The notes beneath the pieces are model-generated. The model was not told the origin of the DNA. It was given only the letters and a program-made list of their open reading frames with translations, and ran no database searches. Made by a program: the position numbers and the translations under genes. From a virus: DNA of 64,000 nt. The stretch covers positions 1 through 64,000 of the IMG/VR virus record IMGVR_UViG_3300020455_000008, one strand, 5' to 3'. Of this stretch, positions 7,228 to 58,841 are shown in pieces; the stretch's first letter is position 1; every line of letters begins with the position of its first letter.

Positions 7228-10200
7228 ATGGCTTCCAAACCAAATATAAGTAATCCAAATTATGCTTTTAATAAAGATAAGCAGTACACACAGGTTGTTT
7301 TCCAACAGGGTAAGCCTATATTAGATGTAGATCTAAATGATATGAGTAATGCCCTTCATGCTCAGAATACCTCTGCCTTAGCAGAAAAGATGGGTTATGG
7401 GCCTTCTCAAATTGACTTTAGAGAATGGGCAATGACCGCAGTCGATACTAAAAACCCTCAAGATGACCGAAATAAGACAAACTTTGCGATTACTTTAGGA
7501 AGGCTTGATACTTACAAAGGTGTAATCGACTTACATGAGTTAAGGGCTGCTAACGTAGACTCAAGGGTGATCTTTGACTATGGGTTGATTGTTGATAATA
7601 GTGAAACAGATGGCGGAGATCGTGAGTATGCCAATTACATCCTTAAAGGAAGTGTAACTGCGGGAAGCTCAACTACTGTTATAAAAGATGAGCATAAGAA
7701 TTTTAAACCCGATCCCGTAAATGAAAATAAAGGATTAAGACTTACGGGATATACACATAATGAGACAATTGAACCGTATAGTACTATTAACCCTATTACT
7801 AATCCAAGCGAGTCTAGGAGCACTAAGTTTGCTAAGGTTACTCTTTCAGAGAGCGCTTGCCGACTTAGGTTTATAAGTGGGAATTTGGATGGTCAAGAAC
7901 AGTTAATTTCTGACGTTGCCGATGGTGAAATTACGGTGAGTGCTCCGTTTGGCGCTATTCCTAATGAGGGTTCACAATATGTGATATTACCGCCCAACAC
8001 TCTACAAGAATACCGAAATCTTTATAATGCAACGACAAGTCAAGCTACTAGTACCCACAAAGGTTTAAGTAACCTTCCTCAGTTGATCACCTATGTTCAA
8101 GTTTTTGAAGAGGATGTATCAGCAAGTGAGGACAGTAGTATTCAATCTAATGCATTAGGTGTAGAGACTACACATAGAACACAATTAAGATGGTGCGTGA
8201 GAGTCGCTAAACTGATCACTTCCCAAGAGGGAGATAATGACGGAACTAACTATCTAACTGACTTAAATATCGAGCATATATATACATTGCTTGAGTCCAA
8301 TCGTTTAGTAGAACACCAAGCACTTGCTGACGCTACGGACGATAAGGCTACTAACGAAGAGGGGGCACTACAGACTCAATATTGGCGGGAGTCTGTTGGA
8401 GCAACCGTCCCCACTGCTGCTAAGATCTTAAAAAGAGAGTCACCGTATCTTGAGCTAGGTTTAACTCCTGCTCACTTCTTTAACTCCGAAGAGTATACCT
8501 TAGATCGTTTATATTGGTCTTTCCTAAAGGCGCTCTTACTACAATCTAGTGGATTTAGTTTTAATGACTTTGTAGTCCTTAATGCATTTCATAGTGAGAC
8601 TAAAACTAATGCAGCCGCATTAGCGAATGATGAAACACTAAGTGAGTATTTTTATCCCGCAGCGCAAACGGATACTACTGCTAGTCCAATTGTTCATGCT
8701 TTCCTTTCAGTAGGAAATAGCTTTGTAAGGGCCACAAACGACACTAACGCACAACCAGCTCGTTTTATGTCTCCGCCAAGAGTGTTCCATACACACGCTG
8801 ACTTATCTGTAGATAATATGAAGAGTCGAACCCTTCATGGCTTACGAGGTGGGATTCTATATGGAGATAATGCGCCCTTAGTCTTTAACTCTCCTTCAGC
8901 CCACTTCTCATTTGTAGATCAGATGGTATTGGGCATGAGTGGTATTGGTTCTGCTTTAGGTGAAACGGCTGAGGGGTATAGAATCCCTTCTGCAATTGAT
9001 TATACATTAAATAACTCTAACGCAAGTGTAGCCCAAGCGGGTTATGGTGTGGGTGCAATCAAGATGTTGTCACCTATATCTGCGAGTACGATAAGCACAG
9101 GCCATGCAGATGGCACATTCTTAACAGGCTCATCTTCTTACCTTTTAAGAGACAAAGGGAACAGATCTTCACATACCGTTAATGCTACGGATAGTGACTT
9201 AGGTTGGTCTTTATATAAACAAGAGAATAGTAACTTAACAGCGAATACTTTGTCAGACTTCTCGATTAGAGGGTGGGATGAGGGTATTGCCCAAGCGATT
9301 GCTTTCCAACAAGGGATTAACTTTAGGAAGTTAGCGATTAAGACCACTGCTCATAAGAGCATGGATCTGTTTACGATTAGTGAGACACCGAGACAGCAAG
9401 CAGATCAGCATGATCAACTTGTAGTTAATACTTCTAGTACTGCCTTTCAAATTCCCGTTAATCAATCACAGACTAAAAATGGCAACTTGTTTTTAGATTC
9501 ATATAGTGGAAATGTATTGAATCCAAGTAACTTTATTCCTGCGAATATATCTCGATTTGATCCTAAGCCTTTATTACAGCAGTATCAAGCTACGGGTGGA
9601 ATTAAAGGATTTGATCAGTCAAGTGGTGCAGATATAAAATATGGGCCTTGGAATAGGTTTGATAGGGAAGATATAGGCACTCATTTAGACCCTGCACTAG
9701 ATGACGCTAATGCGCCTACGTATTCAATGGACTTGTGGCATAATCGATGTACGGCCATGAGACTAAGATACCATGTAGGAGACTTCTACCCAGGCGCTGA
9801 GGATGGCAGAGGAGTACCACGTAATGAGTTAGTGGACTCTTTAAACCTATTTGTGAAGGTAGAGCCTTTGAGCTTGGCTCATTGGATGACTATGCCTAAG
9901 CACCAACACTCTATCTTAGAGAACTCAATTAACTTTGCAGAGGGTATCGAAGCTTTACTAAAAGTATCTCACGGTCTTGGAGATACACAGAAATTGGTAA
10001 ATAGTAGTGGTGTGGCATTAATCCAACAAGACTCACCTATTAACAATGGGGAGTTCCCTTTGTACGTAAACCCCACGGTAGGTAACTCCGATCCAACCAA
10101 CTTACCATTTGAGCATTACAAGCAACCGTTCGTGCATTGGTATCACCCTGCTATGCATAAGATTAAGTCACCGCACCCCGATGATAATAATAATCCGTAT

Positions 10201-21114: not shown

Positions 21115-22044
21115 ATGTCATCTAGTGTTAGGCATACTAGAGCTTCGGCTTGCTCATATAATCTAAAGTCTTCAAAATCTATTGGTTGGTTATCTGCCAT
21201 GCCCGAAAGTGCAATGGACTGTTATCCAGGCTTAGGGGAAGATCCTAGTAGCAGTGAGTTAGCAGAAGCCGTAGAACAGTTTCAGCTTGAGAATGACCTT
21301 ATTGTTGATGGGAAGCTTGGGCGTGGTACTTGGGGCTTAATATTAAAAACCTTTAACCATATCGCAAATGAGGACTCCTTTTGGACGATTAATGACCAAA
21401 GGGTAGGGGTGCAGACTGACGACAGAGTAAAAATGGTCAATTTTGATCAACCCAAGGGTCTTGACCTGCATAGGTTTGGCCACTTCTCTAGCAGGAAGAG
21501 CAGGAATCCACACTTAATCGTTGTTCACTGGGGCGGTCTTGATCCTCATCACTGTTATCGAGTATTCAGTTCCCCCGACAGAGAGGTGTCTAGTCACGCA
21601 GGTATTGGCTTAGACATTGATGGGTCACCTACCATCTATCAATACCTCGACCTAAACCACAAGGCTTGGCATGGAGGATGGGTGAACTCTTACTCAGTGG
21701 GTATCGATATTTGCCAGCAACCCTCCCTCAAGTGGAAGGATCATTATGAAAAGAAGGGTTATATAGTTCCCGTAAAACAAAATGATACAGGTCGTGGCGA
21801 TAAACGTGTTCTAAGTCTTAGCCTTGGAGTTGCGCTTGCTACTAGAGAAGCAGTAAAGACCTTGTGTTCTGTTTTAGATATACCGTATCAGTTCCCTATG
21901 CACTCTGATGGGTCATACAACCATAATGTTCTTAGCAAGGACTATCTACTAAATGGTTTTACTGGTGTGGTAGGCCATCATCACTTAACTGCCAAAAAAT
22001 GGGATTGCGCTTGCTGGTGGGAGGATATATTCGATGAGCGTTAG
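21115..22044 (+). CDS. Endolysin: peptidoglycan-binding domain plus N-acetylmuramoyl-L-alanine amidase
   Basis: AVEQFQ...LIVDGKLGRGTW (PG_binding_1); IVVHW, SSH, AWHGG.VN..SVGIDI, GHHH...KWD (Amidase_2). Confidence 0.88.
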   Translation: MSSSVRHTRASACSYNLKSSKSIGWLSAMPESAMDCYPGLGEDPSSSELAEAVEQFQLENDLIVDGKLGRGTWGLILKTFNHIANEDSFWTINDQRVGVQTDDRVKMVNFDQPKGLDLHRFGHFSSRKSRNPHLIVVHWGGLDPHHCYRVFSSPDREVSSHAGIGLDIDGSPTIYQYLDLNHKAWHGGWVNSYSVGIDICQQPSLKWKDHYEKKGYIVPVKQNDTGRGDKRVLSLSLGVALATREAVKTLCSVLDIPYQFPMHSDGSYNHNVLSKDYLLNGFTGVVGHHHLTAKKWDCACWWEDIFDER

Positions 22045-37428: not shown

Positions 37429-38811
37429 ATGAAAATTTATCTGAGTGGAGTAGTGAGGAAAGATCGCTTAGGTCTTTTGATTGAAGCTGGTATTCAAAAC
37501 GTGGTTATTGACTACTCAGTAGCTAAGGGCTTCTCAGTTCAAGAGTTTGAGCAGATTGCCAATCACTTTGATAGCATAATGTTAGAATATGACCTCTCCA
37601 GTCAGTGGTCTAAGATCAAATATCTGTGGACCAGCTCAGACTTACGTCATGCAAAAGATATTGAAAAGCATGGTTCACTAGAAGAAGCACAAACTTATCA
37701 CATACAGAGAATCACTAAACGTGTAGCAGATTACTTTATCTTTGCTCAGTCTATTCAGCACGTAGTGGACGTGGTATGGACACCCCATTTACCTATTGAG
37801 TATGAGTTTGAACCTAACGAAAGTATTGAACAGCAAAAAATAGGGAGACTAAAAAAAGTTTTCAAAAACTTTTCTGACTATATTTACAACTGTTCTCACA
37901 TAGGTATTCCCAATGATGTTGGGTTACAAGACGTTAAAGACGAAATAAAGCCCCATATTGCTTCTCTAAAGTCGTTTGGGATAAAAACACATAGGTGGGG
38001 TAGGGCTGACAAAGAAACAGCTCTCACAGGCCTATTTTGGAGTTCGTCCTCTTCTAACTGGGTAAGTGGGTCAAAACATGGGGTCACTTTTGAGTACGTA
38101 GGAAATCTAAAGCTAACTACGTATCATGGGTCTAAGGGTTCGGGTAAACAGATTAGAACTAAGCTCAAATCAAAATGTGAAACAATTGGACTTGACCACA
38201 ATCTCTTAATGAACGATGACCGTAAGACTGTAAATTTATGGAATCTACATCAATGGAAGCTTTTGTCTAAAGATGTAGATTTTGTTAGTGGGTACTGGTC
38301 GACGAGGGAGCGGGATGTGAAAGATAAACAGCTTAGTGTTATACAAAATAACTCAAATTCTCAGCTTGCAACTCAAGACCAAATTGGCTCATACTTACGG
38401 AATTGTAATTCATGCTACCTAAGCGCAACTTGCCCAGTATACGAGTCGGATTCGACTTGTAAGATAACGTCTACACCGAAGGTTGAGACACCTAATGACG
38501 TGCAGGCTCTACTCAATCAAGTGATTCAGATCCAAGGGGAGAGAGTTCTTTTTGCTTCTATGTCAGAGCGAATTCAGAACGCTGGAATCAACCCCGAAGT
38601 CTCCAAGGAAATGGAGACACTTACAAAACTAATGAAAGACGCTAAAGAGATCACCTCCGTTGGTGGGGGTGACGAAGTTACGATTCGAGCTAAGGGGTCG
38701 GGTGTCATATCGAGATTGTTTGGCGGATATGGGCGCAGTGGTGGTGGTTCAAAACCATCTACATCGGAGACTATAATAGATGTCTCCCCAATGGAGTCAA
38801 AGGATGACTAG
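37429..38811 (+). CDS. Hypothetical protein, possible degenerate TGT/DpdA-like barrel plus Cys4 domain
   Basis: MKIYLSG start; KTHRWG; SSSSNWVSGSKHG; CNSCYLSATCP......C. Confidence 0.45.
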   Translation: MKIYLSGVVRKDRLGLLIEAGIQNVVIDYSVAKGFSVQEFEQIANHFDSIMLEYDLSSQWSKIKYLWTSSDLRHAKDIEKHGSLEEAQTYHIQRITKRVADYFIFAQSIQHVVDVVWTPHLPIEYEFEPNESIEQQKIGRLKKVFKNFSDYIYNCSHIGIPNDVGLQDVKDEIKPHIASLKSFGIKTHRWGRADKETALTGLFWSSSSSNWVSGSKHGVTFEYVGNLKLTTYHGSKGSGKQIRTKLKSKCETIGLDHNLLMNDDRKTVNLWNLHQWKLLSKDVDFVSGYWSTRERDVKDKQLSVIQNNSNSQLATQDQIGSYLRNCNSCYLSATCPVYESDSTCKITSTPKVETPNDVQALLNQVIQIQGERVLFASMSERIQNAGINPEVSKEMETLTKLMKDAKEITSVGGGDEVTIRAKGSGVISRLFGGYGRSGGGSKPSTSETIIDVSPMESKDD

Positions 38812-41788
38812 AAAATACTTCAGAAACGATCTAGGAGAACTTGTTTATCTACGCTCATATGCACGTTGGCTTGAGTCTGAGCATAGACGAGAGACTTGGA
38901 ATGAAACCGTCAGTCGTGTAATGAGTTTCTTGTTTAAGGATTCACCCGTCCAGCAAGAAGAGATAGACCTCATCGAAGAAATGATTTTAGAGCAGCAAGT
39001 TATGCCTTCTATGCGTTCATTGTGGGCGAGTGGAGACTTTGCTTCTGTTGATAATACTGCAATCTATAACTGCTCATTCCTACCCATCGATAACCTAAGA
39101 GCCTTCTGTGAGTTAATATACATCCTAATGCAAGGTACAGGCGTAGGTTTTTCGGTAGAGGGTAAGTTTGTTAATAAGCTACCTACTGTAGCCCAAATAG
39201 ATGATACGCAGGTCGCTTCCCATCAAGTGGGGGATAGTGCTACTGGTTGGGCAGACGCAGTTTTTTTCGTAGTTACTCATGCGTGGAAGGGCTACGGCTC
39301 TATTGAGCTAGACTACTCACTTGTTAGGCCAAGAGGTAGTCGCTTAGTTACCAAGGGTGGAAGAGCAAGTGGCCCAGAGCCATTGAAAGCTGCCATCGAG
39401 TTCTTGATTGAGACTATCTACTCTGCTGAGGGAAGACAGCTCACAACCCTAGAAGTTTACGATATGTGTTGCTCTTTAGCAGAAGTAGTAGTCGTAGGGG
39501 GTGTTAGACGTTCAGCTATGATCTCGTTTAGCGATCCCGATGATGAGTCAATGCGTCACGCCAAAGATTGGAAACGAGGTAACTTCCCACTCAAACGATA
39601 TATGAGTAATAACAGTGCGTACTTCCAAGAAAGGCCAAGCAAAGAGGTCTTCGATAGGGAGTGGACACAACTCGCAGAGTCGGGGAGTGGTGAACGAGGT
39701 CTATCTATAGACAACTGGCATAGATATGCCCCAAGACCACAGGGTGGCACTCGATCTAACCCCTGCGTGACAGGCGATACTAGAGTTATGACAGAGGATG
39801 GCTTTATTCAGATAAAAGACTTCCTTAATGACCCTAAGACTTTAGTGATCGATTCTCGATTTGGTACTGAGAAGCAGGGTTATACTAGTGATAAAGGCGC
39901 TTTCATCACGGGTGAAAAGCAAGTGTTTAAATTAACTACAAAGCAAGGTTACGAAGTTAAGCTAACGGCAGATCACCGAGTTATGACCTCTAAGGGTTGG
40001 GTAGAAGCAAAAGATCTTGAGCTAGGTGATAAAATTCACATATGTAATAATGGCGGGATGTTTGGGTCTGAGGGCAATGAGGAGATAGGTGCTATTGCGG
40101 GGTGGTATGCAGGTGATGGAACTATTGCTGATGGAAGCCCAAGGTTATACTTCTACCACGAAGATAGAACTCTTACTTCTTACTTCAAGAGCTGCATAGA
40201 GAGCGTTGTGGGGCACGAGGTTAATATCTCTGAATATCTTCCTACCAAGCGAGAGCACATAGAATCGGCTTCTTTGAGAGACTACTTGCCTACTGATGAC
40301 CGAACTAAAGTTCCAGAGATAATTTGGAGAGGAACAGAAAAATGCCAAAAGTCTTATCTGTCGGCTCTGTTCTCAGCAGATGGCTGTGTGCTAGGCGACT
40401 TGAAAAAGGGCGCTTCCATTCGACTGCACTCAACTAAAATTGGTCATCTGAAGGACGTGCAGCAAATATTATTAAACTTTAATGTTTATTCAAAGATATA
40501 CACAGGTCGAATGAAAGAGGGCTTTAGGATAATGCCCGATGGTAAGGGGGGGTTGAAGAACTATTACTGTAAGGAATCAGCAGAGCTGATGATCTCTTGT
40601 AAAAGTTTGGTCACATTTTCACAAAGGATTGGGTTTATGCGACAGGATAAGCAAGAAGCCCTTAACTCGATTATTGACTCTTACAAGAGAAGACCTAATG
40701 CAGATAAGTTTGTCGCAGACTTTACGGGGCTTGAGCCTTTGGGGGTAGAGACTGTGTATGATTTGACTGAAGAGACTACACATTCCTTTATTGCAAATGG
40801 ATTAGTCGTCCATAACTGCCATGAAATTGGTTTAAGATTTAGAGAATCAAATGACCCTTGGTCGGGCGAAGGTGGGGGCGGTCAGTTCTGCAATCTCAGT
40901 GCTGTAGTTGTTCGCCCTGAAGACACATTAGATACACTAAAGCTAAAGGTGAGACTTGCTACGATCATTGGTTGTACTCAAGCTCAATTTACTAATTTTC
41001 CATATTTGCGCCCCGCCTGGAGAGAGCTATGTGAAGAGGATAGATTAATTGGTGTGGACCTAACTGGTCAATGTGACCATCCAACTCTGTTAGATAATGT
41101 AGAAAACCTATCCATATTAAACGATGTGGCAATCTCTACAGCTAGTGAACTTTCTGAAATGTTGGGTATTAATATGCCAGCAGCAGTAACTTGCGGTAAA
41201 CCAAGTGGCAACACCTCCCAAATGGTGGATTGTGCAAGTGGTTTCCATCCTCGTTACAGTGATTATTATTTTAGGCACGTTCGAGTTAGTGCAGATGATC
41301 CACTCTCAGCATTATTGAAGTCTGAAGGTGTACCTATGTTTCCTGAAGTAGGTCAAGAGAATCTTGATGAAAAAGATGTTAAAACATGGGTAGCACGTTT
41401 CCCCGTTAAGTCACCTAGTGGTTCGATGACTCGTAACGATGAGAGTTCATTTGATCAAATGGAGCGTTATCTGACAATAATGAAGGGTTGGTGTAGGGAT
41501 CGAGGTCACAATCAATCAGCTACCATTTATGTAAAAGAGGACGACTGGGGTAAGGTGGGTGAATGGGTTTGGGATAACTTTGACGACATCGTTGGGCTAT
41601 CATTCCTACCTTACGATGGCGGTAACTATAAATTAGCGCCCTACGAAGAGATCTCTCAAGATGAATATGAGGACTGCATATTAGACTTCCCAAATATTGA
41701 TTTCCAAAAGCTTTCTGAATTTGAAGATTTTGATCAAGGACAAGGTTCTACTGAGTTAGCTTGCACAGGTGGAACGTGTGAACTATAG
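38804..41788 (+). CDS. nrdJ: Class II (adenosylcobalamin) ribonucleotide reductase precursor with intein
   Basis: RRETWNETV.R, PSMR, YNCSF, GTGVGFS, GGVRRSA, NP/C.EI, FCNLS, KPSGN, APYEEI, C-terminal CTGGTC. Confidence 0.95.
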   Translation: MTRKYFRNDLGELVYLRSYARWLESEHRRETWNETVSRVMSFLFKDSPVQQEEIDLIEEMILEQQVMPSMRSLWASGDFASVDNTAIYNCSFLPIDNLRAFCELIYILMQGTGVGFSVEGKFVNKLPTVAQIDDTQVASHQVGDSATGWADAVFFVVTHAWKGYGSIELDYSLVRPRGSRLVTKGGRASGPEPLKAAIEFLIETIYSAEGRQLTTLEVYDMCCSLAEVVVVGGVRRSAMISFSDPDDESMRHAKDWKRGNFPLKRYMSNNSAYFQERPSKEVFDREWTQLAESGSGERGLSIDNWHRYAPRPQGGTRSNPCVTGDTRVMTEDGFIQIKDFLNDPKTLVIDSRFGTEKQGYTSDKGAFITGEKQVFKLTTKQGYEVKLTADHRVMTSKGWVEAKDLELGDKIHICNNGGMFGSEGNEEIGAIAGWYAGDGTIADGSPRLYFYHEDRTLTSYFKSCIESVVGHEVNISEYLPTKREHIESASLRDYLPTDDRTKVPEIIWRGTEKCQKSYLSALFSADGCVLGDLKKGASIRLHSTKIGHLKDVQQILLNFNVYSKIYTGRMKEGFRIMPDGKGGLKNYYCKESAELMISCKSLVTFSQRIGFMRQDKQEALNSIIDSYKRRPNADKFVADFTGLEPLGVETVYDLTEETTHSFIANGLVVHNCHEIGLRFRESNDPWSGEGGGGQFCNLSAVVVRPEDTLDTLKLKVRLATIIGCTQAQFTNFPYLRPAWRELCEEDRLIGVDLTGQCDHPTLLDNVENLSILNDVAISTASELSEMLGINMPAAVTCGKPSGNTSQMVDCASGFHPRYSDYYFRHVRVSADDPLSALLKSEGVPMFPEVGQENLDEKDVKTWVARFPVKSPSGSMTRNDESSFDQMERYLTIMKGWCRDRGHNQSATIYVKEDDWGKVGEWVWDNFDDIVGLSFLPYDGGNYKLAPYEEISQDEYEDCILDFPNIDFQKLSEFEDFDQGQGSTELACTGGTCEL
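39764..40816 (+). mobile_element. Intein with LAGLIDADG homing endonuclease (351 aa)
   Basis: Starts CVTGDT; block B LTADH; IAGWYAGDG and LSALFSADG; ends VYDL...HSFIANGLVVHN followed by Cys. Confidence 0.95.
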
Positions 41789-46409: not shown

Positions 46410-46686
46410 ACCAAAAGAGACATACGATCAATGTATCCTCAAAATTGAGGATGGTATTGTTTATTACTGCGTAGACTCAATACTAAACATATTGACTGAC
46501 GATTTTGAGTCGTGGGTCAAAGACAGCCCAAGTTTCTCAGAACAAGATGAGAGTTACGAATATCAAGCTATAACACTAGCGTTAGAATGGTTTGATCACA
46601 ATATGCACAGTGCATATCTTGGTAGGTATTCACCTAGATATGTATTTAACACAGAAGACATGGAAAATAATGAATGTGGATCATAG
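46378..46686 (+). CDS. Conserved hypothetical phage protein
   Basis: ALEWFDHNM..AYLG..SP motif. Confidence 0.65.
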   Translation: MTEKPQTIYLEPKETYDQCILKIEDGIVYYCVDSILNILTDDFESWVKDSPSFSEQDESYEYQAITLALEWFDHNMHSAYLGRYSPRYVFNTEDMENNECGS

Positions 46687-48034
46687 CGAAAAACTTACCC
46701 ATATATCCCTCTGCACAGGCTACGGGGGGATTGATCTTGGACTCAAACGAGCTATCGGATCAGTTAGCACAGTCTGTTATGTGGAGATCGAAGCCTTCGT
46801 CATCGAAAACTTGGTTGCGAAGATTGAAGCGGAAATCATCGACCCCGCGCCTATTTTCACAAACCTTAAAACCTTCCCTTGGGAACACTTTAGTGGACGA
46901 GTGGACATCCTCAGTGGAGGGTTTCCTTGTCAACCATTTAGTGCCGCAGGAAGAAGGGGCGGAGATGAAGATCCCCGACACCTGTGGCCATACATTGTCG
47001 ATGGAATCAAACGGCTTGGAAGACCTCCCATTGTTTTCTTCGAGAACGTGGAGGGAATCCTCAGCTCAAAGCTCAAGGGTGACCAATGGTCAGACCCCGA
47101 AGGAACACCCGTTTTGCTTCATGTCCATCGAGAGCTGGAAAGATTGGGTTACAGAGCAACGTCAAGCGTATTCTCAGCGGCTGAAGTTGGCGCAACACAC
47201 AGAAGAAAAAGGGTCTTTATTCTCGGTGTCAGAAATGACCTCTCAGACAAAGGTAGGGAATGGATCACTCAAAGCATGGGCAACACCAAGGGCGAGCAAA
47301 ATAGGTTCAGAGAACTTGGAGAAGTGGAAGAAGAGAGCAGAGAAAGGTCAAGTCAGCACAATGCCACTCGGTTTACAAGTGGAGGTTTCAGAACAGCATA
47401 CCCCGCACCAAGGGGAGCAGAGCAATACCCCTATGAGCCACCAAGAACTCAATTGGGCAACTCCCAACACGATGGATCACCTATCCCCGAAAAGTGCGGA
47501 AACCCTAATGAGACAGGCCACAACTGTCAGAAAGGGCCGCAAATATCCATCGAATCTGAGAGAGCAGGTCGATCCGAAGTCTATGCAAATATACAAGGAA
47601 ACGAACTGGGCAACCCCCACGTCAAGGGATTGGAAGGGGGCGTACTCAGAGGAGGGTCTGATCTTAAATCCAAAATGGGTTGCACTATTACCCGATCAAG
47701 TAAAAGAGAATCAGAAAATGTGGACAACCCCGATCAGTCGAGATTGTTACGAGATAGAAATGAAACAACAAATACCGAATCGGAAAGACGGGAAGACTCG
47801 CTTAGACACGATGCCGAGACAGATTCATCATCAAGAGGGGTACAAGGGGAAATTGAATCCGAGGTGGGTGGAAATGTTGATGGGTTTACCCATTGGATGG
47901 ACTATGCCGAGTTGTACGAATCCTGTGATAGTAGAATTGACGAGCTTAGGATGTTGGGAAACGGAGTTGTACCTGACACCGCCAAAAGAGCCTTCACAGT
48001 TTTGTGGCAAATCTTACGTAGAGGAAGATATTAA
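46670..48034 (+). CDS. DNA (cytosine-5)-methyltransferase, catalytic (alpha-like) chain
   Basis: Motif I SLCTGYGG, IV GGFPCQPFS, VI ENVEG, VIII HRRKRVF, X LGNGVVP; no motif IX in this frame. Confidence 0.9.
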   Translation: MNVDHSEKLTHISLCTGYGGIDLGLKRAIGSVSTVCYVEIEAFVIENLVAKIEAEIIDPAPIFTNLKTFPWEHFSGRVDILSGGFPCQPFSAAGRRGGDEDPRHLWPYIVDGIKRLGRPPIVFFENVEGILSSKLKGDQWSDPEGTPVLLHVHRELERLGYRATSSVFSAAEVGATHRRKRVFILGVRNDLSDKGREWITQSMGNTKGEQNRFRELGEVEEESRERSSQHNATRFTSGGFRTAYPAPRGAEQYPYEPPRTQLGNSQHDGSPIPEKCGNPNETGHNCQKGPQISIESERAGRSEVYANIQGNELGNPHVKGLEGGVLRGGSDLKSKMGCTITRSSKRESENVDNPDQSRLLRDRNETTNTESERREDSLRHDAETDSSSRGVQGEIESEVGGNVDGFTHWMDYAELYESCDSRIDELRMLGNGVVPDTAKRAFTVLWQILRRGRY

Positions 48035-48056
48035 TGATAGTAATACTAATCAGTAG
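46674..48056 (+). CDS. Overlapping +1-frame methyltransferase partner (beta-like; TRD repeats plus motif IX)
   Basis: 460 codons without a stop; four W[AT]TP modules; GKLNPRWVEMLMGLPIGWT. Confidence 0.7.
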   Translation: MWIIAKNLPIYPSAQATGGLILDSNELSDQLAQSVMWRSKPSSSKTWLRRLKRKSSTPRLFSQTLKPSLGNTLVDEWTSSVEGFLVNHLVPQEEGAEMKIPDTCGHTLSMESNGLEDLPLFSSRTWRESSAQSSRVTNGQTPKEHPFCFMSIESWKDWVTEQRQAYSQRLKLAQHTEEKGSLFSVSEMTSQTKVGNGSLKAWATPRASKIGSENLEKWKKRAEKGQVSTMPLGLQVEVSEQHTPHQGEQSNTPMSHQELNWATPNTMDHLSPKSAETLMRQATTVRKGRKYPSNLREQVDPKSMQIYKETNWATPTSRDWKGAYSEEGLILNPKWVALLPDQVKENQKMWTTPISRDCYEIEMKQQIPNRKDGKTRLDTMPRQIHHQEGYKGKLNPRWVEMLMGLPIGWTMPSCTNPVIVELTSLGCWETELYLTPPKEPSQFCGKSYVEEDINDSNTNQ

Positions 48057-48107: not shown

Positions 48108-48449
48108 CTAGTCATCTTCATCTAAGTCCATATCAAAATCAACTTCATCTTGTAGCTCAATAATACCAACGTGCTCAAATTTATTGAGTTCTACCTCTTC
48201 GTAGATAATAACTTGCTTTAACTCTAACTCTTCTGCAATCTCTTCCATGACAGCTACACACCGATCTCTGTCATTAGAAATCATACACAGACCTTTTGCT
48301 ACGGGCTGGTAGAACAGATACAAATTAGCCCACATTGCTAACGGAACTATCAAAAACGCAGTGATCAGTGACGTGAATAAAATGCAGATGATCACATAAA
48401 TGACAAATAGAGCTTTTAGTAGATCGTCTTTATCAATATTAATCTCCAT
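48108..48449 (-). CDS. Hypothetical membrane protein
   Basis: Long N-terminal hydrophobic segment; RBS GGAGG. Confidence 0.6.
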   Translation of the reverse strand: MEINIDKDDLLKALFVIYVIICILFTSLITAFLIVPLAMWANLYLFYQPVAKGLCMISNDRDRCVAVMEEIAEELELKQVIIYEEVELNKFEHVGIIELQDEVDFDMDLDEDD

Positions 48450-49026
48450 CTATTACCTCCCGAATTGCTTTGAGAACTATAGGTTCAGCGTACGTAAACC
48501 ATTGGTCAAAATCATTTACTGCGGGTGCAATCTCTACTACCTTGACCCCCATTGCTTGCATACGCTCAAACCAGTCAATCAGTGCCTTAGACACTTCCAT
48601 CAATCCCTCTTCACCAATGATTTTACATACTGAATCTTCGGCTTCTAAGTTGTTTTGAGCTGCTGCTGGGATAGAATGGAAATAGACAATGAGATCGGGC
48701 AGCGGGTTAAGTTCCTCCATTCCAAGCGTCATGTCTTTGAACAAGTCAATCTCAGCCTGGGCAAGCTCATCTGTCTTAGCCAATGCTCTAGCGTAATCAT
48801 AACAAGCCCATACACTACGCTCATGTAGTGTAACTCCATTTGACTCTCTCCAGTTCTCCATATTCTGAGTAAGGGCGTAAGTCCAACTTTTGATTCCATT
48901 GAACGGTGGGGCGGCTACACCCACTTTTACAGTATCAAACTTAAAGTCACTCTCTGTAATAAACTTGTTAGTAAATTTTGGCATATTACTGCCCCATATC
49001 CCCTCAAACACAATACGCTTTGTCAT
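48439..49026 (-). CDS. Deoxynucleoside-kinase-like protein, degenerate P-loop
   Basis: RIVFEGIWGS, HERSVW, PDLIVYF; no Walker A Lys. Confidence 0.65.
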   Translation of the reverse strand: MTKRIVFEGIWGSNMPKFTNKFITESDFKFDTVKVGVAAPPFNGIKSWTYALTQNMENWRESNGVTLHERSVWACYDYARALAKTDELAQAEIDLFKDMTLGMEELNPLPDLIVYFHSIPAAAQNNLEAEDSVCKIIGEEGLMEVSKALIDWFERMQAMGVKVVEIAPAVNDFDQWFTYAEPIVLKAIREVIDGD

Positions 49027-49176
49027 TACTTGTCCTTTTTAGGCTTTATTCTGCGTTTTAACGAATGTTTTAGGCTTAATCAAGGTGGATACACCTGTGT
49101 ATTAGATAACAGCCTTTAAAACTTAAAATATGAGTTTTTAAATAAGTAACAAATCATACTTCTTATTGATCTGTAT

Positions 49177-49198
49177 TGATATAATACAATTTCGGAGG
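49177..49198 (+). promoter_or_regulatory. Extended -10 promoter and RBS of the cyclase operon
   Basis: TGATATAAT at 49177-49185 and GGAGG at 49194-49198. Confidence 0.55.
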
Positions 49199-49204
49199 TG
49201 CATT

Positions 49205-49459
49205 ATGTATGATCTATCACATCTATCAACAGATAAATATGTAGTTGACAAACTTAGAGATTTTTCTGAAGAACTGGATCTTGATGAAACAATATGCGCT
49301 ATCTGCGGACTAAGCCCCGACAAATGCCCATGTTACGTACATCCACCTCACTCATGCACGTATGAAGACTGTGACTGTGCTTGTGATGACCCTGAGATAA
49401 CCTGTTCATGCTGCATAGTAGAACTATGTGATTGTGAGAAGAAAAATGGAGTTCAATAA
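49205..49459 (+). CDS. Small Cys-rich protein (13 Cys, metallothionein-like spacing)
   Basis: CAIC..CPC..C..CDCAC..CSCC..CDC; strong RBS. Confidence 0.7.
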   Translation: MYDLSHLSTDKYVVDKLRDFSEELDLDETICAICGLSPDKCPCYVHPPHSCTYEDCDCACDDPEITCSCCIVELCDCEKKNGVQ

Positions 49460-50294
49460 TAGAATTCTAGCAATTGTACTCTTAGATATTATCGGCAGCA
49501 CTGCGTTTGTAGAACGGTATGGCGCTAGAAAAGCAGCAGAATGGTTACAGTATCACGATAGACTCACTCGATCACTACTATATAAATTTAATGGTCGAGA
49601 GATAGATAGATCGGATGGATTCCTTCTTAGTTTTGATCGTCCTATAGACGCTGTTAATTTCTGCTTGCACTACCAGCAATCAATTCCCAAAAAAACTAAG
49701 TTGCAGACTCGTATTGGTATGCATTGGGGAAAAATTGTAGAAGTTGTTCAAGATGAAAAATTTACTAATGTTGGAGCTAAGAGCATTGAACTTGAAGGTC
49801 TAGCTAAAAATATTACTGCTCGTACTATGTCTTTGTGTGGAGCGGGTCAAGTTTTGTTGACTAAAGAAGCTATGATAGCTGTGCAGAGTAGAACTAATCG
49901 CTTTACTCCATCAGGTACACGTTATGCGTGTGTAGGTCTCTATCGCTTCAAGGGCGTAAAGAAACCACAACAGATCTATGCCGTGGGTGCAACGATTGAC
50001 TCTCTGCAACCCCCACCCTCTTCAGACAAAGTAAAGCGACTAGGTGGAGCTAAAAAGATCCGCAGCCGAATGAGAGATAGACAGTTAAAAGATCATATCT
50101 CTTGGGTATTTTACAGATTAGCCTTTATTTGTGCTATTTATTTAGGTCTATTCTTTTGGCCATTTATATCTACTGAAAGCGCAAGGATTACATGGGGTAT
50201 AGATCACATTTTTTGGTGGATAGATGATGTCAAGAATTTCTTTAGCATTGTCATCGAAGCATACAAAACAGTTAGAAGGGATCTAGGATTTTGA
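49446..50294 (+). CDS. Class III nucleotide cyclase with C-terminal membrane segment
   Basis: LLDIIGST and RSDGF catalytic Asps, RIGMHWG, G...N..AR, GQVLLT, FKGV; hydrophobic C-terminus. Confidence 0.88.
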   Translation: MEFNNRILAIVLLDIIGSTAFVERYGARKAAEWLQYHDRLTRSLLYKFNGREIDRSDGFLLSFDRPIDAVNFCLHYQQSIPKKTKLQTRIGMHWGKIVEVVQDEKFTNVGAKSIELEGLAKNITARTMSLCGAGQVLLTKEAMIAVQSRTNRFTPSGTRYACVGLYRFKGVKKPQQIYAVGATIDSLQPPPSSDKVKRLGGAKKIRSRMRDRQLKDHISWVFYRLAFICAIYLGLFFWPFISTESARITWGIDHIFWWIDDVKNFFSIVIEAYKTVRRDLGF

Positions 50295-50740
50295 TTGATG
50301 AACATGGTAATGATTTAGACCCCAAAGCTCGAAGAGGTTGGTGGTTCAGTGTGGTATTTTTACTTATCATTGTAGGCTTAATACTCTTCCTCACTTACGT
50401 CAAAATCGTAGACGAGAATCGTGATGTATTGATCGGCATTTTGGGTGTCTTAACTGGCTCTATCAGCTCAATGATGGCCATTGCCAGTGGTAGAGATCCA
50501 AGTGAAGTAGAAGAGTTGAAAGAGGAGCTGTCAAGAGCTAACGCAGACAGAGAAGCACTTATAGCCAGGCTAAGAGATTCACAGATCCAGCTTCAGATCA
50601 AAAATGAACAGATCGGTGACCTACAGACCGCAGTGATTGATAAGCTGTCTATGTTTGCGGGGGAGAAAGTCATACGTAAAAAAGCGCCTGAAGAAGTGAT
50701 ACTTGATCCTGACATTGAAGCATGGCTACCCAAGTCGTAA
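50291..50740 (+). CDS. Two-TM membrane protein with coiled-coil tail
   Basis: WWFSVVFLLIIVGLILFLTYV and VLIGILGVLTGSISSMMAIA, then heptad region; TTGA overlap with cyclase stop. Confidence 0.75.
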   Translation: MIDEHGNDLDPKARRGWWFSVVFLLIIVGLILFLTYVKIVDENRDVLIGILGVLTGSISSMMAIASGRDPSEVEELKEELSRANADREALIARLRDSQIQLQIKNEQIGDLQTAVIDKLSMFAGEKVIRKKAPEEVILDPDIEAWLPKS

Positions 50741-50759
50741 AAGTTTTTGAAAACTATTT
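50739..50759. repeat. 21-bp direct repeat, left of the methyltransferase
   Basis: AAAAGTTTTTGAAAACTATTT, identical to 52190-52210. Confidence 0.85.
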
Positions 50760-52179
50760 ATAGTATACCTTTGAACAGTGGTAGGTCTTCTAAGTCTTTC
50801 TTCTTGACTTCGACTTCCTCAGCTTGACCACCCCAGTAAGCTATGCGCTTCTTAGCAATCTCAACGTACTCCTCGTTAAGCTCAATGCCAATCGCATTCA
50901 CTCCTTCTACAGCGCAAGCGCACAGGGTAGACCCACTGCCTAAAAATGGCTCTAAAACAGTGCCATCCTTTGGGCAGACTAAACGCAGGCAGTACTTCAT
51001 TAAATCAAGTGGCTTGACCGTTGGGTGGTGATTAGCCCTCTTACCCGATGGCGTTCTAGTTTTCTCTAACGACCCGTCTATACGACCATTTAATGTACCA
51101 AAGTTTTTCTTCTCTAAATCTTGTAGTCCAGCTTCTTTCTCTTTCTTACTTGCTTTCGATGTATAGAAGAACCTACTTGCCCCACCCTTATCTCCGTACC
51201 CTTCTGAACCATAAGCCTTCCAGCCTACACCATCCTCGACTGAGGAGAGCTGCCCCTTGCCAGCTACTCCCCAAGCCCGACTCTTCTTCCCAGCTCTACC
51301 ACTTTTCTGAATACCGCTTTGTTGATCGACCGCAAGTGCAGCTTCCTCATCTAGTATAACATTGGCAGGGAAACGACCTTTGGGTTTGTGCATTTGAATT
51401 TTACTACCGACTTTTGCTATGTGACCTGTCCACCCACTTTCCTTATAAGAAGCAGTTTTCTGTTCATGCATTTGGGTGAAGTCGATATTTTCACTGTTAT
51501 CATATTGCACTCTAGTATCATCGATATTGATTGCACCTACGCCCCACGTCATTACATTGTCTGCAATAGATCCTTCGGGTGGTTTTCTAATCATTATGAT
51601 GGGTTCATACGCTGGCTTGAGTGCAGTACCCCAACCCTCCCACTTCTCAGCTTCGGGGCATTTAGCTTGGTACTCTTCGACAGGATTTGACGTTAGTTTG
51701 TTTTTCTCTTCTACATCACTAGCTTGATACTGACTCGCAGTGGGGATTGCTCTACCCCTATTAGGGTGACCAAACTTCTTATCAATCGCTAATGATACGT
51801 TATGACTTTTTGGGAACCCACTGCCGTACAGGTACATCAAAGTATCCCTCACCTCGAACCCAGCTAAGCGCAAACTAATACTCATTAGGTCTTGGGTTCT
51901 TGAGGAAGCGAATACTAAACCATGCGCTCCAGGCTTTAGGACTCTGTATACTTCTTTCCACAAACTGGGAGGAGGCACCCAACTATCCCAAGACTTATTC
52001 ATAAACCCCTTACCCTTGGGTGTCCAAGACTCTCCACTTGTCCATGCTCTTAAGCAATCTTCTACATTCTTCGATGAGGTATTCCCCATACCGTAGGGCG
52101 GATCAGTGATTAAGCAGTCTAGTGAGTTGTCGTCTAATGTCTTAAGTATCTCTTCAGAGTCTCCATTTAGTATTTGCAT
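50758..52179 (-). CDS. DNA amino-methyltransferase (N6A/N4C, beta class)
   Basis: ITDPPY near the N-terminus, GSGFPKS, ALKPAYEPI, HPTVKP, EPFLGSGST; ATG at 52179. Confidence 0.92.
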   Translation of the reverse strand: MQILNGDSEEILKTLDDNSLDCLITDPPYGMGNTSSKNVEDCLRAWTSGESWTPKGKGFMNKSWDSWVPPPSLWKEVYRVLKPGAHGLVFASSRTQDLMSISLRLAGFEVRDTLMYLYGSGFPKSHNVSLAIDKKFGHPNRGRAIPTASQYQASDVEEKNKLTSNPVEEYQAKCPEAEKWEGWGTALKPAYEPIIMIRKPPEGSIADNVMTWGVGAINIDDTRVQYDNSENIDFTQMHEQKTASYKESGWTGHIAKVGSKIQMHKPKGRFPANVILDEEAALAVDQQSGIQKSGRAGKKSRAWGVAGKGQLSSVEDGVGWKAYGSEGYGDKGGASRFFYTSKASKKEKEAGLQDLEKKNFGTLNGRIDGSLEKTRTPSGKRANHHPTVKPLDLMKYCLRLVCPKDGTVLEPFLGSGSTLCACAVEGVNAIGIELNEEYVEIAKKRIAYWGGQAEEVEVKKKDLEDLPLFKGIL

Positions 52180-52189
52180 TGTCTCTCTC

Positions 52190-52210
52190 AAAAGTTTTTG
52201 AAAACTATTT
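52190..52210. repeat. 21-bp direct repeat, right of the methyltransferase
   Basis: AAAAGTTTTTGAAAACTATTT just upstream of the MTase start. Confidence 0.85.
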
Positions 52211-52801
52211 TTAGGTGGTGGCCCGCACAAATGAGTAGATCTGCTCTAGTAGTTTCTCAGACCAATACTCTCTCTCAAGGCCCATGATTTTAGGGGATTG
52301 AACTCTAAGTACCTGAACGCCCTTAGACTCCATTAACCCTAGCCACGTTTCATACAATTCGTCAAGAGCCACAAACTGAGTATTCGATAAGGGTGAGTGA
52401 CTAGCCGCACACTCAAAATACACAATGAGCGTTGGGAGCTGTATATCATCTGACATAAGATTGTCATAAAACATCTTCAATCGCTGGTAGTCCTCATCAC
52501 TCATACCAAGTCTCTCTCTATACTCCCACAGCGCAAAGGTCATCGCTGACCATACAGATCTCTCATAGAATGTAATCGGCACATGAGATCCCCACTGCTC
52601 ACCTAAATGCCACTGAGAAAAAAGCGCAAGCATATAGCTCTCCCACTTCTCTATATCCCAATCTCCATCTAATACACTCTCCTCCTCTCCCCATATCAAA
52701 CGACTCACACCTAAGTTCTCCAGCTCCCACATAAATGCTCCCACTCCACTACCCACTATACCCTCAATCGAAATCCTAGAAAAAGCGCGCAAAGAATACA
52801 T
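52211..52801 (-). CDS. Deoxynucleoside-kinase-like protein, degenerate P-loop
   Basis: RISIEGIVGSGV, YERSVWS, PTLIVYF, L.ELYETW; no Walker A Lys. Confidence 0.65.
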   Translation of the reverse strand: MYSLRAFSRISIEGIVGSGVGAFMWELENLGVSRLIWGEEESVLDGDWDIEKWESYMLALFSQWHLGEQWGSHVPITFYERSVWSAMTFALWEYRERLGMSDEDYQRLKMFYDNLMSDDIQLPTLIVYFECAASHSPLSNTQFVALDELYETWLGLMESKGVQVLRVQSPKIMGLEREYWSEKLLEQIYSFVRATT

Positions 52802-58569: not shown

Positions 58570-58841
58570 GTCTTTTTGAATACCAACCCCCACCAACCCA
58601 CAAAAACCGTATTTTGCGTTTTAAGCCACGTTAAAACACTGGTCTATATCAATACAGTGGTTAGGTGGCTATCTTTCGTCTTACGTTAAAATATGAGCTA
58701 ATTTAACTATGTTCATTCTTTGGTTTGAGTCGGGCCTGTATGCTGCTAGCGATTAGAGAGAAGTTGACCCGTCAAACCAACTGAACAACTGTTCAGTTGC
58801 CCCAAGACACCCATCCCCCATACCTGCGCAAGCAACTTTTA

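Follow-up and report, generated by a model that had tools for sequence, protein, structure and literature searches.

A class III nucleotidyl cyclase strictly paired with a two-helix membrane protein in uncultured marine phages: a candidate membrane signaling module

Introduction

Phages can counter bacterial defense systems that use cyclic nucleotides by degrading or sequestering these molecules. In the bacterial defense system Pycsar, a gene for a cyclase (PycC) of the class III fold, the product of which is cCMP or cUMP, is followed by a gene for a membrane protein, the effector (PycTM or PycTIR), which carries a domain that binds cyclic nucleoside monophosphates (cNMPs). A different arrangement is represented by XC_0250 of Xanthomonas campestris, a protein of 886 amino acids (aa) with a cyclase domain at residues 32 to 191 plus tetratricopeptide repeats (TPRs); the isolated domain converts GTP to cyclic GMP (cGMP), does not use ATP, and makes no cyclic AMP (cAMP), and the cGMP works through a cNMP-GGDEF protein (PMC3770947). 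Here, we describe a phage locus that encodes a cyclase related to the XC_0250 domain together with a small membrane protein with two transmembrane helices (the 2-TM protein). The locus lies in a 64,000-nucleotide stretch of viral DNA (the window), which corresponds to bases 1 to 64000 of the virus record IMGVR_UViG_3300020455_000008. The cyclase and 2-TM genes form a conserved pair that was found only in viruses.

The record is 84,945 bp long, is rated complete, and has direct terminal repeats. Its gene content, which includes baseplate proteins, a DnaB-like helicase, a family A DNA polymerase, and a ribonucleotide reductase, identifies the source virus as a tailed phage. Sequencing data sets that contain the window DNA are labeled as marine metagenomes, two of which may be its source, and one data set from another study shares 0.70 of the sampled words; no RNA data set is among those listed; some homologs of the cyclase and of the 2-TM protein originate from Tara samples.

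Results

Anatomy of the locus

The original prediction for this DNA, made from the letters by themselves, had described three overlapping plus-strand genes amid minus-strand genes as one phage-borne unit. The gene coordinates and the overlaps of 14 nt and 4 nt confirm this arrangement, and the translations agree with the three products that had been proposed, an 84-aa protein with 13 Cys, a C-terminally anchored cyclase, and a 2-TM coiled-coil protein. The features of the unit are as follows.

49205-49459, plus strand: gene for a Cys-rich acidic protein, 84 aa (13 Cys, 3 His, 19 Asp plus Glu, no hydrophobic segment)
49446-50294, plus strand: gene for a tail-anchored class III nucleotidyl cyclase, 282 aa, with its ATG 14 nt inside the Cys-rich gene
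49446-50045, plus strand: cyclase catalytic domain, residues 1 to 200 (D14, D57, N122, R126), predicted to be cytoplasmic
50097-50174, plus strand: cyclase membrane helix, residues 218 to 243 (Kyte-Doolittle), followed by an amphipathic tail of ~40 residues
50291-50740, plus strand: gene for the 2-TM coiled-coil protein, 149 aa, with a TTG start and a 4-nt overlap with the cyclase stop
50327-50488, plus strand: membrane helices of the 2-TM protein, residues 13 to 43 and 45 to 66 (Kyte-Doolittle, AlphaFold, alignment)
50498-50656, plus strand: long helix of the 2-TM protein, residues 70 to 122 (AlphaFold), with the near-invariant ANADREALIARLRD, predicted to be cytoplasmic

The reading frames of all three genes are conserved in other viral contigs; database clusters number 713 for the cyclase, 1447 for its 2-TM partner, and 21 for the Cys-rich gene product.

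The cyclase and 2-TM genes are strictly linked in viral contigs

Linkage was assessed from both genes. On the cyclase side, 50 viral loci were fetched, 3 of which end inside the cyclase gene; the 2-TM gene adjoins the cyclase in all of the remaining loci, which have room downstream (47/47). On the 2-TM side, 179 stretches matched, 80 were kept, and 79 of the 80 were new; a cyclase accompanies the 2-TM gene in every one of the 71 with at least 900 nt of room (71/71), directly upstream in 69. Thus, the predicted co-occurrence of cyclase and 2-TM protein was borne out. The two genes abut or lie no more than 50 nt apart in 122 of 123 cyclase-first loci. A 237-aa gene stands between them (2229-2942) on a 36-kb contig, L090, and the order is reversed on a 96.6-kb contig, L099, where the cyclase is downstream of the 2-TM gene. 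By eye, the 237-aa insert resembles a methylase-like gene that stands upstream of the cyclase in another locus, L007.

In total, ~122 distinct viral contigs with the module were fetched. They include genomes of 73 to 85 kb, in which the neighbors are those seen in the window (methylase and dNK genes), and contigs of ~35 to 37 kb, in which genes for the large terminase and a putative portal protein flank the pair and ThyX-like or dCMP-deaminase-like genes (identified by eye in the translations) often precede it. Homologs of the cyclase are also present on a 211-kb and a 136-kb contig. The partner is more conserved than the enzyme, with a median identity to the window proteins of 74% versus 66%. 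The original prediction had further raised conservation of the trio across related phages as a check; this was not found, as the Cys-rich gene is present in just ~19 to 20 of ~111 distinct contigs, about one in five. The conserved unit is the cyclase/2-TM pair and not the trio.

Could the two genes be neighbors by chance, with the 2-TM protein an ordinary lysis or membrane protein and the cyclase an unrelated moron? Short relatives of the 2-TM protein do occur without a cyclase (see below). Against this stand the 47/47 and 71/71 co-occurrence over different contexts, including a reversed order and a methylase insertion, and the existence of a cyclase-linked 2-TM subfamily with its own conserved C-terminal tail (L138, P140, W145). 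Because of the linkage counts, we regard chance adjacency as close to refuted.

Outside viral contigs, the pair was not found. Cellular relatives of the cyclase were collected by scanning one genome per species for 185,579 species, which yielded 67 loci; neither the 2-TM gene nor the Cys-rich gene occurs at any of them (0/67), and the scan returned no close copy. Among 50,697 GenBank phage records, tblastn matched neither the cyclase nor the 2-TM protein. A DNA search of the region against GenBank phages returned only one 54-nt match, in the methylase gene, and for another of the fetched contigs (L121) the sole match was a gene of Vibrio phages that encodes a coiled-coil protein.

The enzyme is a class III cyclase with intact catalytic residues

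The cyclase contains the motifs LLDIIGST (D14), RSDGF (D57), and KNITAR (N122 and R126). In an alignment with 41 relatives of 58 to 77% identity, D14, D57, N122, and R126 are invariant, as is an unusual stretch, REIDRSDGF (G50-F59), and R89 and H93 show little or no variation. The Lys that canonically selects the purine is missing, and its place is occupied by the invariant I53 and D54. A class III cyclase with both metal-binding Asp residues, a C-terminal anchor, and no evident purine-selecting Lys was what had been read from the sequence, and these points stand.

Profile and structure searches, which had been suggested as a check on that reading, found both a family match and the cyclase homology fold. 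The protein matches the NCBIfam family TIGR04510 with an E value of 2.7e-46 (residues 6 to 198, profile positions 4 to 204 of 814) and the LipJ model with an E value of 4.6e-14; many of its relatives in the cluster search carry a precomputed match to the Pfam family Guanylate_cyc (PF00211). The AlphaFold model has a predicted local distance difference test score (pLDDT) of 89.4 and places helices at residues 214 to 242 and 258 to 279. With this model, Foldseek returned 188 PDB matches at an E value of ≤0.001, headed by Ma1120 and Rv1900c (E value of ~1e-13, target-normalized TM-score of 0.85 to 0.90) and followed by guanylate and adenylate cyclases. The same two proteins are the closest PDB matches by sequence (Rv1900c, or LipJ, E = 2.5e-10; Ma1120, E = 2.4e-8) and hence the nearest solved structures by both measures, although they differ from the phage protein in identity (~24%), in their domain partners, and in that the solved constructs have no membrane anchor. 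A fold search of BFVD returned nine matches at an E value of ≤0.001, mostly giant-virus proteins of 14 to 20% identity and no member of the phage cyclase family. The window enzyme is a class III cyclase with intact catalytic residues.

A dead enzyme would nonetheless be imaginable, in which the cyclase domain is a nucleotide-binding or scaffolding part of a membrane complex and no messenger is made. Related mycobacterial cyclase domains are poor enzymes, the Pfam score of the window protein is below threshold, and its base-selecting positions are noncanonical. The four canonical catalytic positions together with R89 and H93 are nevertheless invariant or nearly so in the 41 relatives, and the phage clade retains an Asn that its cellular relatives have lost. 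We consider a pseudo-enzyme improbable.

The cyclase domain belongs to the XC_0250/TIGR04510 clade

The cellular relatives are 23 to 48% identical to the phage cyclase over the aligned part (about residues 10 to 199), and most are open frames of ~840 to 1460 aa. In a tree of 77 rows comprising phage, TIGR04510-like, and LipJ-like sequences, the phage cyclases are monophyletic on a long stem (Shimodaira-Hasegawa-like approximate likelihood ratio test [SH-aLRT] support of 100). They are nested in the TIGR04510-like group beside Xanthomonadales, Sumerlaeota, and two sequences from metagenome-assembled genomes (MAGs) (support of 86), and the phage clade together with the TIGR04510-like rows is separated from the LipJ-like rows, an outgroup-like branch, with a support of 100. 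The signature columns E52-I53-D54-R55-S56-D57-G58-F59, A111-K112, and E115 are common to 48 to 62 of 62 cellular relatives, and D14, D57, and R126 are kept in 62/62. Position 122 differs: it is Asn in every phage cyclase and Pro, Ala, His, or Ser in 62/62 cellular relatives. The likeness to the xanthomonad "peptide modification system cyclase" family, noted in the original prediction, is thus supported by the TIGR04510 match, the signature columns, and the placement in the tree.

The link to XC_0250 runs through a Tahibacter protein of like architecture and neighborhood (locus L133) rather than through a direct comparison with XC_0250. This 879-aa protein scores 794.6 bits against TIGR04510 and is flanked by a cNMP-binding/GGDEF gene, a SagB-like dehydrogenase gene (TIGR04511), and a second TIGR04510 gene, which is the XC_0250/XC_0249 arrangement and thereby ties the phage cyclase to XC_0250. 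The phage protein and the XC_0250/TIGR04510 proteins have a common cyclase domain clade with the signatures EIDRSDGF and GAKx[IV]ELEG, and a hydrophobic helix follows directly after the domain both in the phage protein and in several Xanthomonadales-type proteins (L133, L134, L138, L180) and a MAG protein (L195). The differences are equally clear. The TIGR04510 proteins measure ~814 to 886 aa, whereas the 282-aa phage cyclase lacks the C-terminal TPR-containing part; the phage cyclase keeps the catalytic Asn, which is absent from 62/62 cellular relatives; and it is tied to a 2-TM gene that is absent at 67/67 cellular loci. Unlike in Tahibacter, no cNMP-GGDEF, SagB-like dehydrogenase, or NHLP-like peptide gene was found around the window genes.

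In the Tahibacter locus, a 96-aa open reading frame (ORF) (7547-7837, minus strand) separates the TIGR04510 gene from that for the SagB-like dehydrogenase, and its sequence looks like that of an NHLP-type precursor peptide.

The 2-TM protein belongs to a phage membrane family linked to lysis cassettes

The relatives of the 2-TM protein are unusually conserved (68 to 83% identity), and the Gly/Ser-rich second membrane helix is almost invariant. The AlphaFold model, which is of modest confidence (pLDDT of 70; predicted template modeling score [pTM] of 0.29), consists of helices only and contains one unbroken helix of 53 residues at positions 70 to 122, which makes up most of the ~80-residue part predicted to be cytoplasmic. 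The protein matches no Pfam family above threshold and no PHROG holin family; its sole PHROG match is phrog_9990, of unknown function. A fold search of BFVD with the model returned 0 matches at an E value of ≤0.001, a PDB profile search with the family returned nothing meaningful, and the ESM Atlas contained only unnamed viral clusters.

Membership in the SLATT group was considered and rejected. The window protein scores 18.0 bits against SLATT_fungal, short of the gathering score of 26.5, and its E value against the NCBIfam SLATT model is 0.021; matches to the AbrB membrane family are equally weak and likewise occur in 28/28 relatives (best E value of 1.6e-4).

More distant relatives were informative. 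A profile search of 1.84 billion representatives yielded 118 proteins, including a set of short ones of ~110 to 140 aa that keep both helices, a GR(D/N)PxEV turn, and a C-terminal VIDKLS motif. A profile built from six short relatives matches the window 2-TM gene at an E value of 4.9e-23, and this is the sole copy in the genome. Short relatives of this kind occur in 301 viral stretches; 80 of these were fetched, and 74 of the 80 had room. None of the 80 fetched loci has a cyclase. An endolysin gene follows the short relative directly in 29 of the 74, of the M15 type (phrog_894) in 18 and of the amidase type (phrog_822) in 11, and a PHROG holin (phrog_3427) lies within 1.5 kb in 17. Thus, the 2-TM proteins form a phage membrane family whose link to lysis cassettes is clear but not exclusive, and the cyclase-linked branch is, on alignment, a longer and highly conserved offshoot of it. 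The original prediction had likened the cyclase and 2-TM genes to the Pycsar layout with its 2-TM effector; the place of the short relatives in lysis cassettes instead favors a membrane partner of the lysis type.

Among these loci (L209 to L288; for example, positions 3811-5294 of L281), one lysis cassette of small phages recurs. It consists of a ~60-aa peptide with one transmembrane helix, a ~118-aa 2-TM coiled-coil protein (the short relative itself), an endolysin, a 47-aa hydrophobic peptide, and the phrog_3427 holin.

Holins, which open membrane holes for the exit of endolysin, and antiholins are likewise small proteins with two helices and a charged C-terminal part, and their genes stand beside an endolysin gene, as is true of the short relatives (29/74) and not of the window gene. 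The window protein further differs from holins in having no PHROG holin match, in its unusual conservation, and in its distance from the sole endolysin candidate found in the genome, as follows.

21115-22044: gene for an Amidase_2 protein, 309 aa (38.3 bits)

Searches of the phage genome for phrog_822, phrog_894, phrog_3427, Phage_lysozyme, and Peptidase_M15_4 returned nothing. The Amidase_2 gene is preceded by a gene for a 117-aa protein with hydrophobic stretches.

The pair differs from Pycsar in the cyclase, the effector, and the genomes that encode it

A Pycsar layout (PycC plus PycTM) had been proposed for the cyclase and 2-TM genes. The pair does have the order of a cyclase gene followed by a membrane-protein gene and the class III fold, but the comparison fails at three points. 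First, the window cyclase matched none of the PADLOC PycC profiles at an E value of ≤1, and matches among relatives were few (4/41 and 1/41) and weak (best E value of 0.0042). Second, the Pycsar effector carries a cNMP-binding domain, for which neither the 2-TM protein nor its relatives have a Pfam match. Third, Pycsar is a bacterial defense system, whereas the phage pair occurs only in viral contigs, with the partner at 0/67 cellular loci.

These observations bear on whether the pair could still act in a Pycsar-like manner, as a suicide or exclusion device in which the cyclase would respond to stress or to a second infection by making a cNMP that opens a membrane-disrupting 2-TM effector. The layout, the weak SLATT_fungal matches of the window protein (18 bits) and of 28/28 relatives, and the invariant Gly/Ser-rich second membrane helix speak for such a device. 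The poor PycC matches, the missing cNMP-binding domain, and the restriction of the pair to viral contigs, with no close copy among 185,579 species, argue the other way, as does the fact that the SLATT score is below the Pfam threshold and AbrB matches are equally weak. We judge a Pycsar-like module of this kind unlikely.

The Cys-rich protein is an optional accessory

In 23 of 118 loci with room, a small ORF encoding a protein with 12 to 13 Cys was flagged immediately 5′ of the cyclase gene. Among the 23, two have the look of spurious antisense ORFs and two pairs come from one contig each, so that 19 distinct contigs remain; a shorter version in divergent orientation is found on L099. The relatives measure 54 to 84 aa, and the Cys/His pattern (ETIC-x2-CGL, C-x-C, H-x2-H-x-C, C-x-C, C-x-CC, C-x-C) is kept in nine aligned relatives. 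The family is small, as the 21 database clusters indicate. Ten of the 11 viral loci found by an alignment-based search on the Cys-rich side are on known cyclase contigs, and the remaining one is truncated by the end of its contig; a single-sequence pattern search of viral contigs returned nothing. Thus, the Cys-rich protein is an optional accessory that occurs only with the phage cyclase, in three different arrangements.

The protein has no Pfam, NCBIfam, PHROG, or PDB match. Scores in the ESM Atlas were all <0.9, with distant rubredoxin- or zinc-ribbon-like leads at 0.75 to 0.76, and its composition suggests that it is probably zinc binding; the role of metal or redox sensor put forward in the original prediction is a candidate function. 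A role as the counterpart of a TIGR04510 precursor peptide was also considered and rejected: the small Tahibacter ORF is NHLP-like, has two Cys, and bears no similarity to it.

Proposed function of the pair

We slightly favor a reading in which the module is a phage-encoded, self-contained membrane signaling pair coupled to the membrane or to the lysis program. In this model, the catalytic domain would face the cytoplasm, with the single C-terminal helix tethering it to the inner membrane, and would most likely dimerize like other class III cyclases and convert a nucleoside triphosphate to a cyclic mononucleotide. The phages would thus probably produce a second messenger of their own at the membrane of the host. 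The 2-TM coiled-coil protein would be the obligate partner of the cyclase in the same membrane, descended from a phage family of lysis cassettes, and would couple the cyclase to the membrane state or the lysis program as a regulator or transducer in trans. This role appears more likely for it than that of a cNMP-gated killer because of its lysis-cassette descent and its lack of a nucleotide-binding fold. The Cys-rich protein, where present, would be an optional, probably zinc-binding accessory.

The cNMP_binding and GAF families have no match in the complete 84,945-bp genome. Because the phage encodes no recognizable receptor, the signal might act on the 2-TM partner, on lysis timing, or on cNMP receptors of the host. 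The last of these targets leads to a serious rival, to which we assign a rather low probability: a flood of cGMP or cAMP could reprogram host regulators (CRP/FNR-type, GAF, or cNMP-gated), and the 2-TM protein, unrelated to lysis, would just anchor, stabilize, or tune the enzyme. In keeping with such a hijack of host signaling, no receptor domain is found in the phage genome, and the module stands amid nucleotide-metabolism and DNA-modification genes here and beside genes that look ThyX-like or dCMP-deaminase-like by eye in the small phages. XC_0250-type cGMP likewise works through a protein of host type, the cNMP-GGDEF protein (PMC3770947). The rival does not account for the higher conservation of the partner than of the enzyme (median of 74% versus 66%) or for the partner's membership in a lysis-cassette family.

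Several observations weigh against the membrane or lysis signaling pair that we favor. On the enzyme side, the score of the cyclase against Guanylate_cyc (20.0 bits, E = 5.6e-4) is below the gathering score of 21.9, and its 158.5 bits against TIGR04510 do not reach the whole-protein cutoff of 400. The base-selecting positions correspond to the canonical pattern of neither adenylate nor guanylate cyclases. cGMP is the best guess for the product by analogy with the XC_0250 domain, at about even chances; it is only a guess because of the distance from the cGMP-making clade (just 23 to 48% identity) and the retained N122, which make the product uncertain. On the partner side, sub-threshold SLATT_fungal matches occur in 28/28 relatives at an E value of ≤0.1 (best, 4.9e-5), which leaves some probability for a role as a pore effector, and the gene that directly follows the short relative is a head-morphogenesis gene instead in 18/74 loci. 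The window 2-TM gene lies 28 kb from the sole endolysin candidate, and no endolysin or holin homolog was found in the flanks of 129 cyclase-linked loci; the link to lysis therefore rests on the distant relatives. No fused cyclase/2-TM form was seen in the fetched loci. A predicted complex of the cyclase and the 2-TM protein scored 0.00 in both runs, in which controls were not folded, and weighs neither way.

A more specific form of the favored reading is tentative, and we would give it a low probability. The pair may be a split membrane guanylate cyclase, in which a tail-anchored XC_0250-type subunit acts with a 2-TM coiled-coil transducer recruited from the lysis cassette and working in trans, and a pulse of cGMP reports or sets the membrane state. 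If so, the pulse would set the moment of lysis, or keep out a second phage, in uncultured marine phages that are abundant and of several genome types, and it would be the first lysis or infection clock run by a phage-made cyclic mononucleotide. In the full-text literature searched, which lacks most subscription journals, we found no description of a phage-made cyclic mononucleotide with a dedicated membrane partner and none of TIGR04510. The enzyme class is known; the phage-specific architecture and the partner are undescribed. The pair is frequent, occurs in at least three genome types, and is in no GenBank phage record, and it thus represents untouched marine phage biology. It could serve to test whether lysis or host takeover is under second-messenger control, and the small, soluble, well-modeled catalytic domain offers a route to substrate choice in XC_0250-type cyclases.

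Regulatory signals and neighboring genes

Two signals precede the first gene of the unit.

49177-49185, plus strand: extended -10-like box TGATATAAT, 20 nt 5′ of the first start codon
49195-49200, plus strand: ribosome-binding site GGAGGT of the Cys-rich gene

A promoter of the form TGnTATAAT had been predicted here, and this held in part. The box is present, and in a three-way alignment with two relatives of the same context (L048 and L006) TATAAT and GGAGGTG are conserved where the flanks diverge. The TG of the extended box is not conserved in that alignment, and the TGnTATAAT pattern occurs in the window at chance level (4 observed versus 3.95 expected). The TGATATAAT box was not listed in a consensus scan that required a -35 box along with the -10 box. 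From the conserved elements, a promoter ahead of the Cys-rich gene is plausible.

The 15-mer TATTYTGCGTTTTAA occurs in exactly two copies, one intergenic and just upstream of the operon (49047-49061) and one at 58610-58624. Allowing up to two mismatches, there are four matches, a count that was reached in no shuffle, and the 15-mer may be a phage regulatory element.

The unit is flanked by the following minus-strand genes.

48108-48449, minus strand: gene for a 113-aa membrane protein, upstream neighbor
48439-49026, minus strand: dNK-like gene, upstream neighbor (Pfam dNK, 20.8 bits, under the cutoff)
50758-52230, minus strand: N6/N4 DNA methylase gene, downstream neighbor
52211-52801, minus strand: second dNK-like gene, downstream neighbor (Pfam dNK, 29.7 bits)

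The cyclase/methylase block is thus bracketed by the two dNK-like genes, which have relatives at equivalent places in L006 and L048.

Other parts of the window contain unusual genes. At 46592-48056, two plus-strand frames (480 and 460 aa) overlap over nearly their whole length; only the 480-aa frame has a Pfam match (C-5 DNA methylase, E = 1e-33), and the 460-aa frame has tblastn relatives in other viral loci at 35 to 58% identity. The 1002-aa ribonucleotide reductase (38780-41788) is matched in two stretches, and residues ~329 to 573 instead match terminase-like and helicase-like PHROGs; this region may represent an insertion, for instance an intein. A 460-aa protein encoded at 37429-38811 matches, in its C-terminal part, the PHROG for queuine tRNA-ribosyltransferase (E = 1.7e-19) and may act in a pathway that modifies bases of DNA or tRNA.

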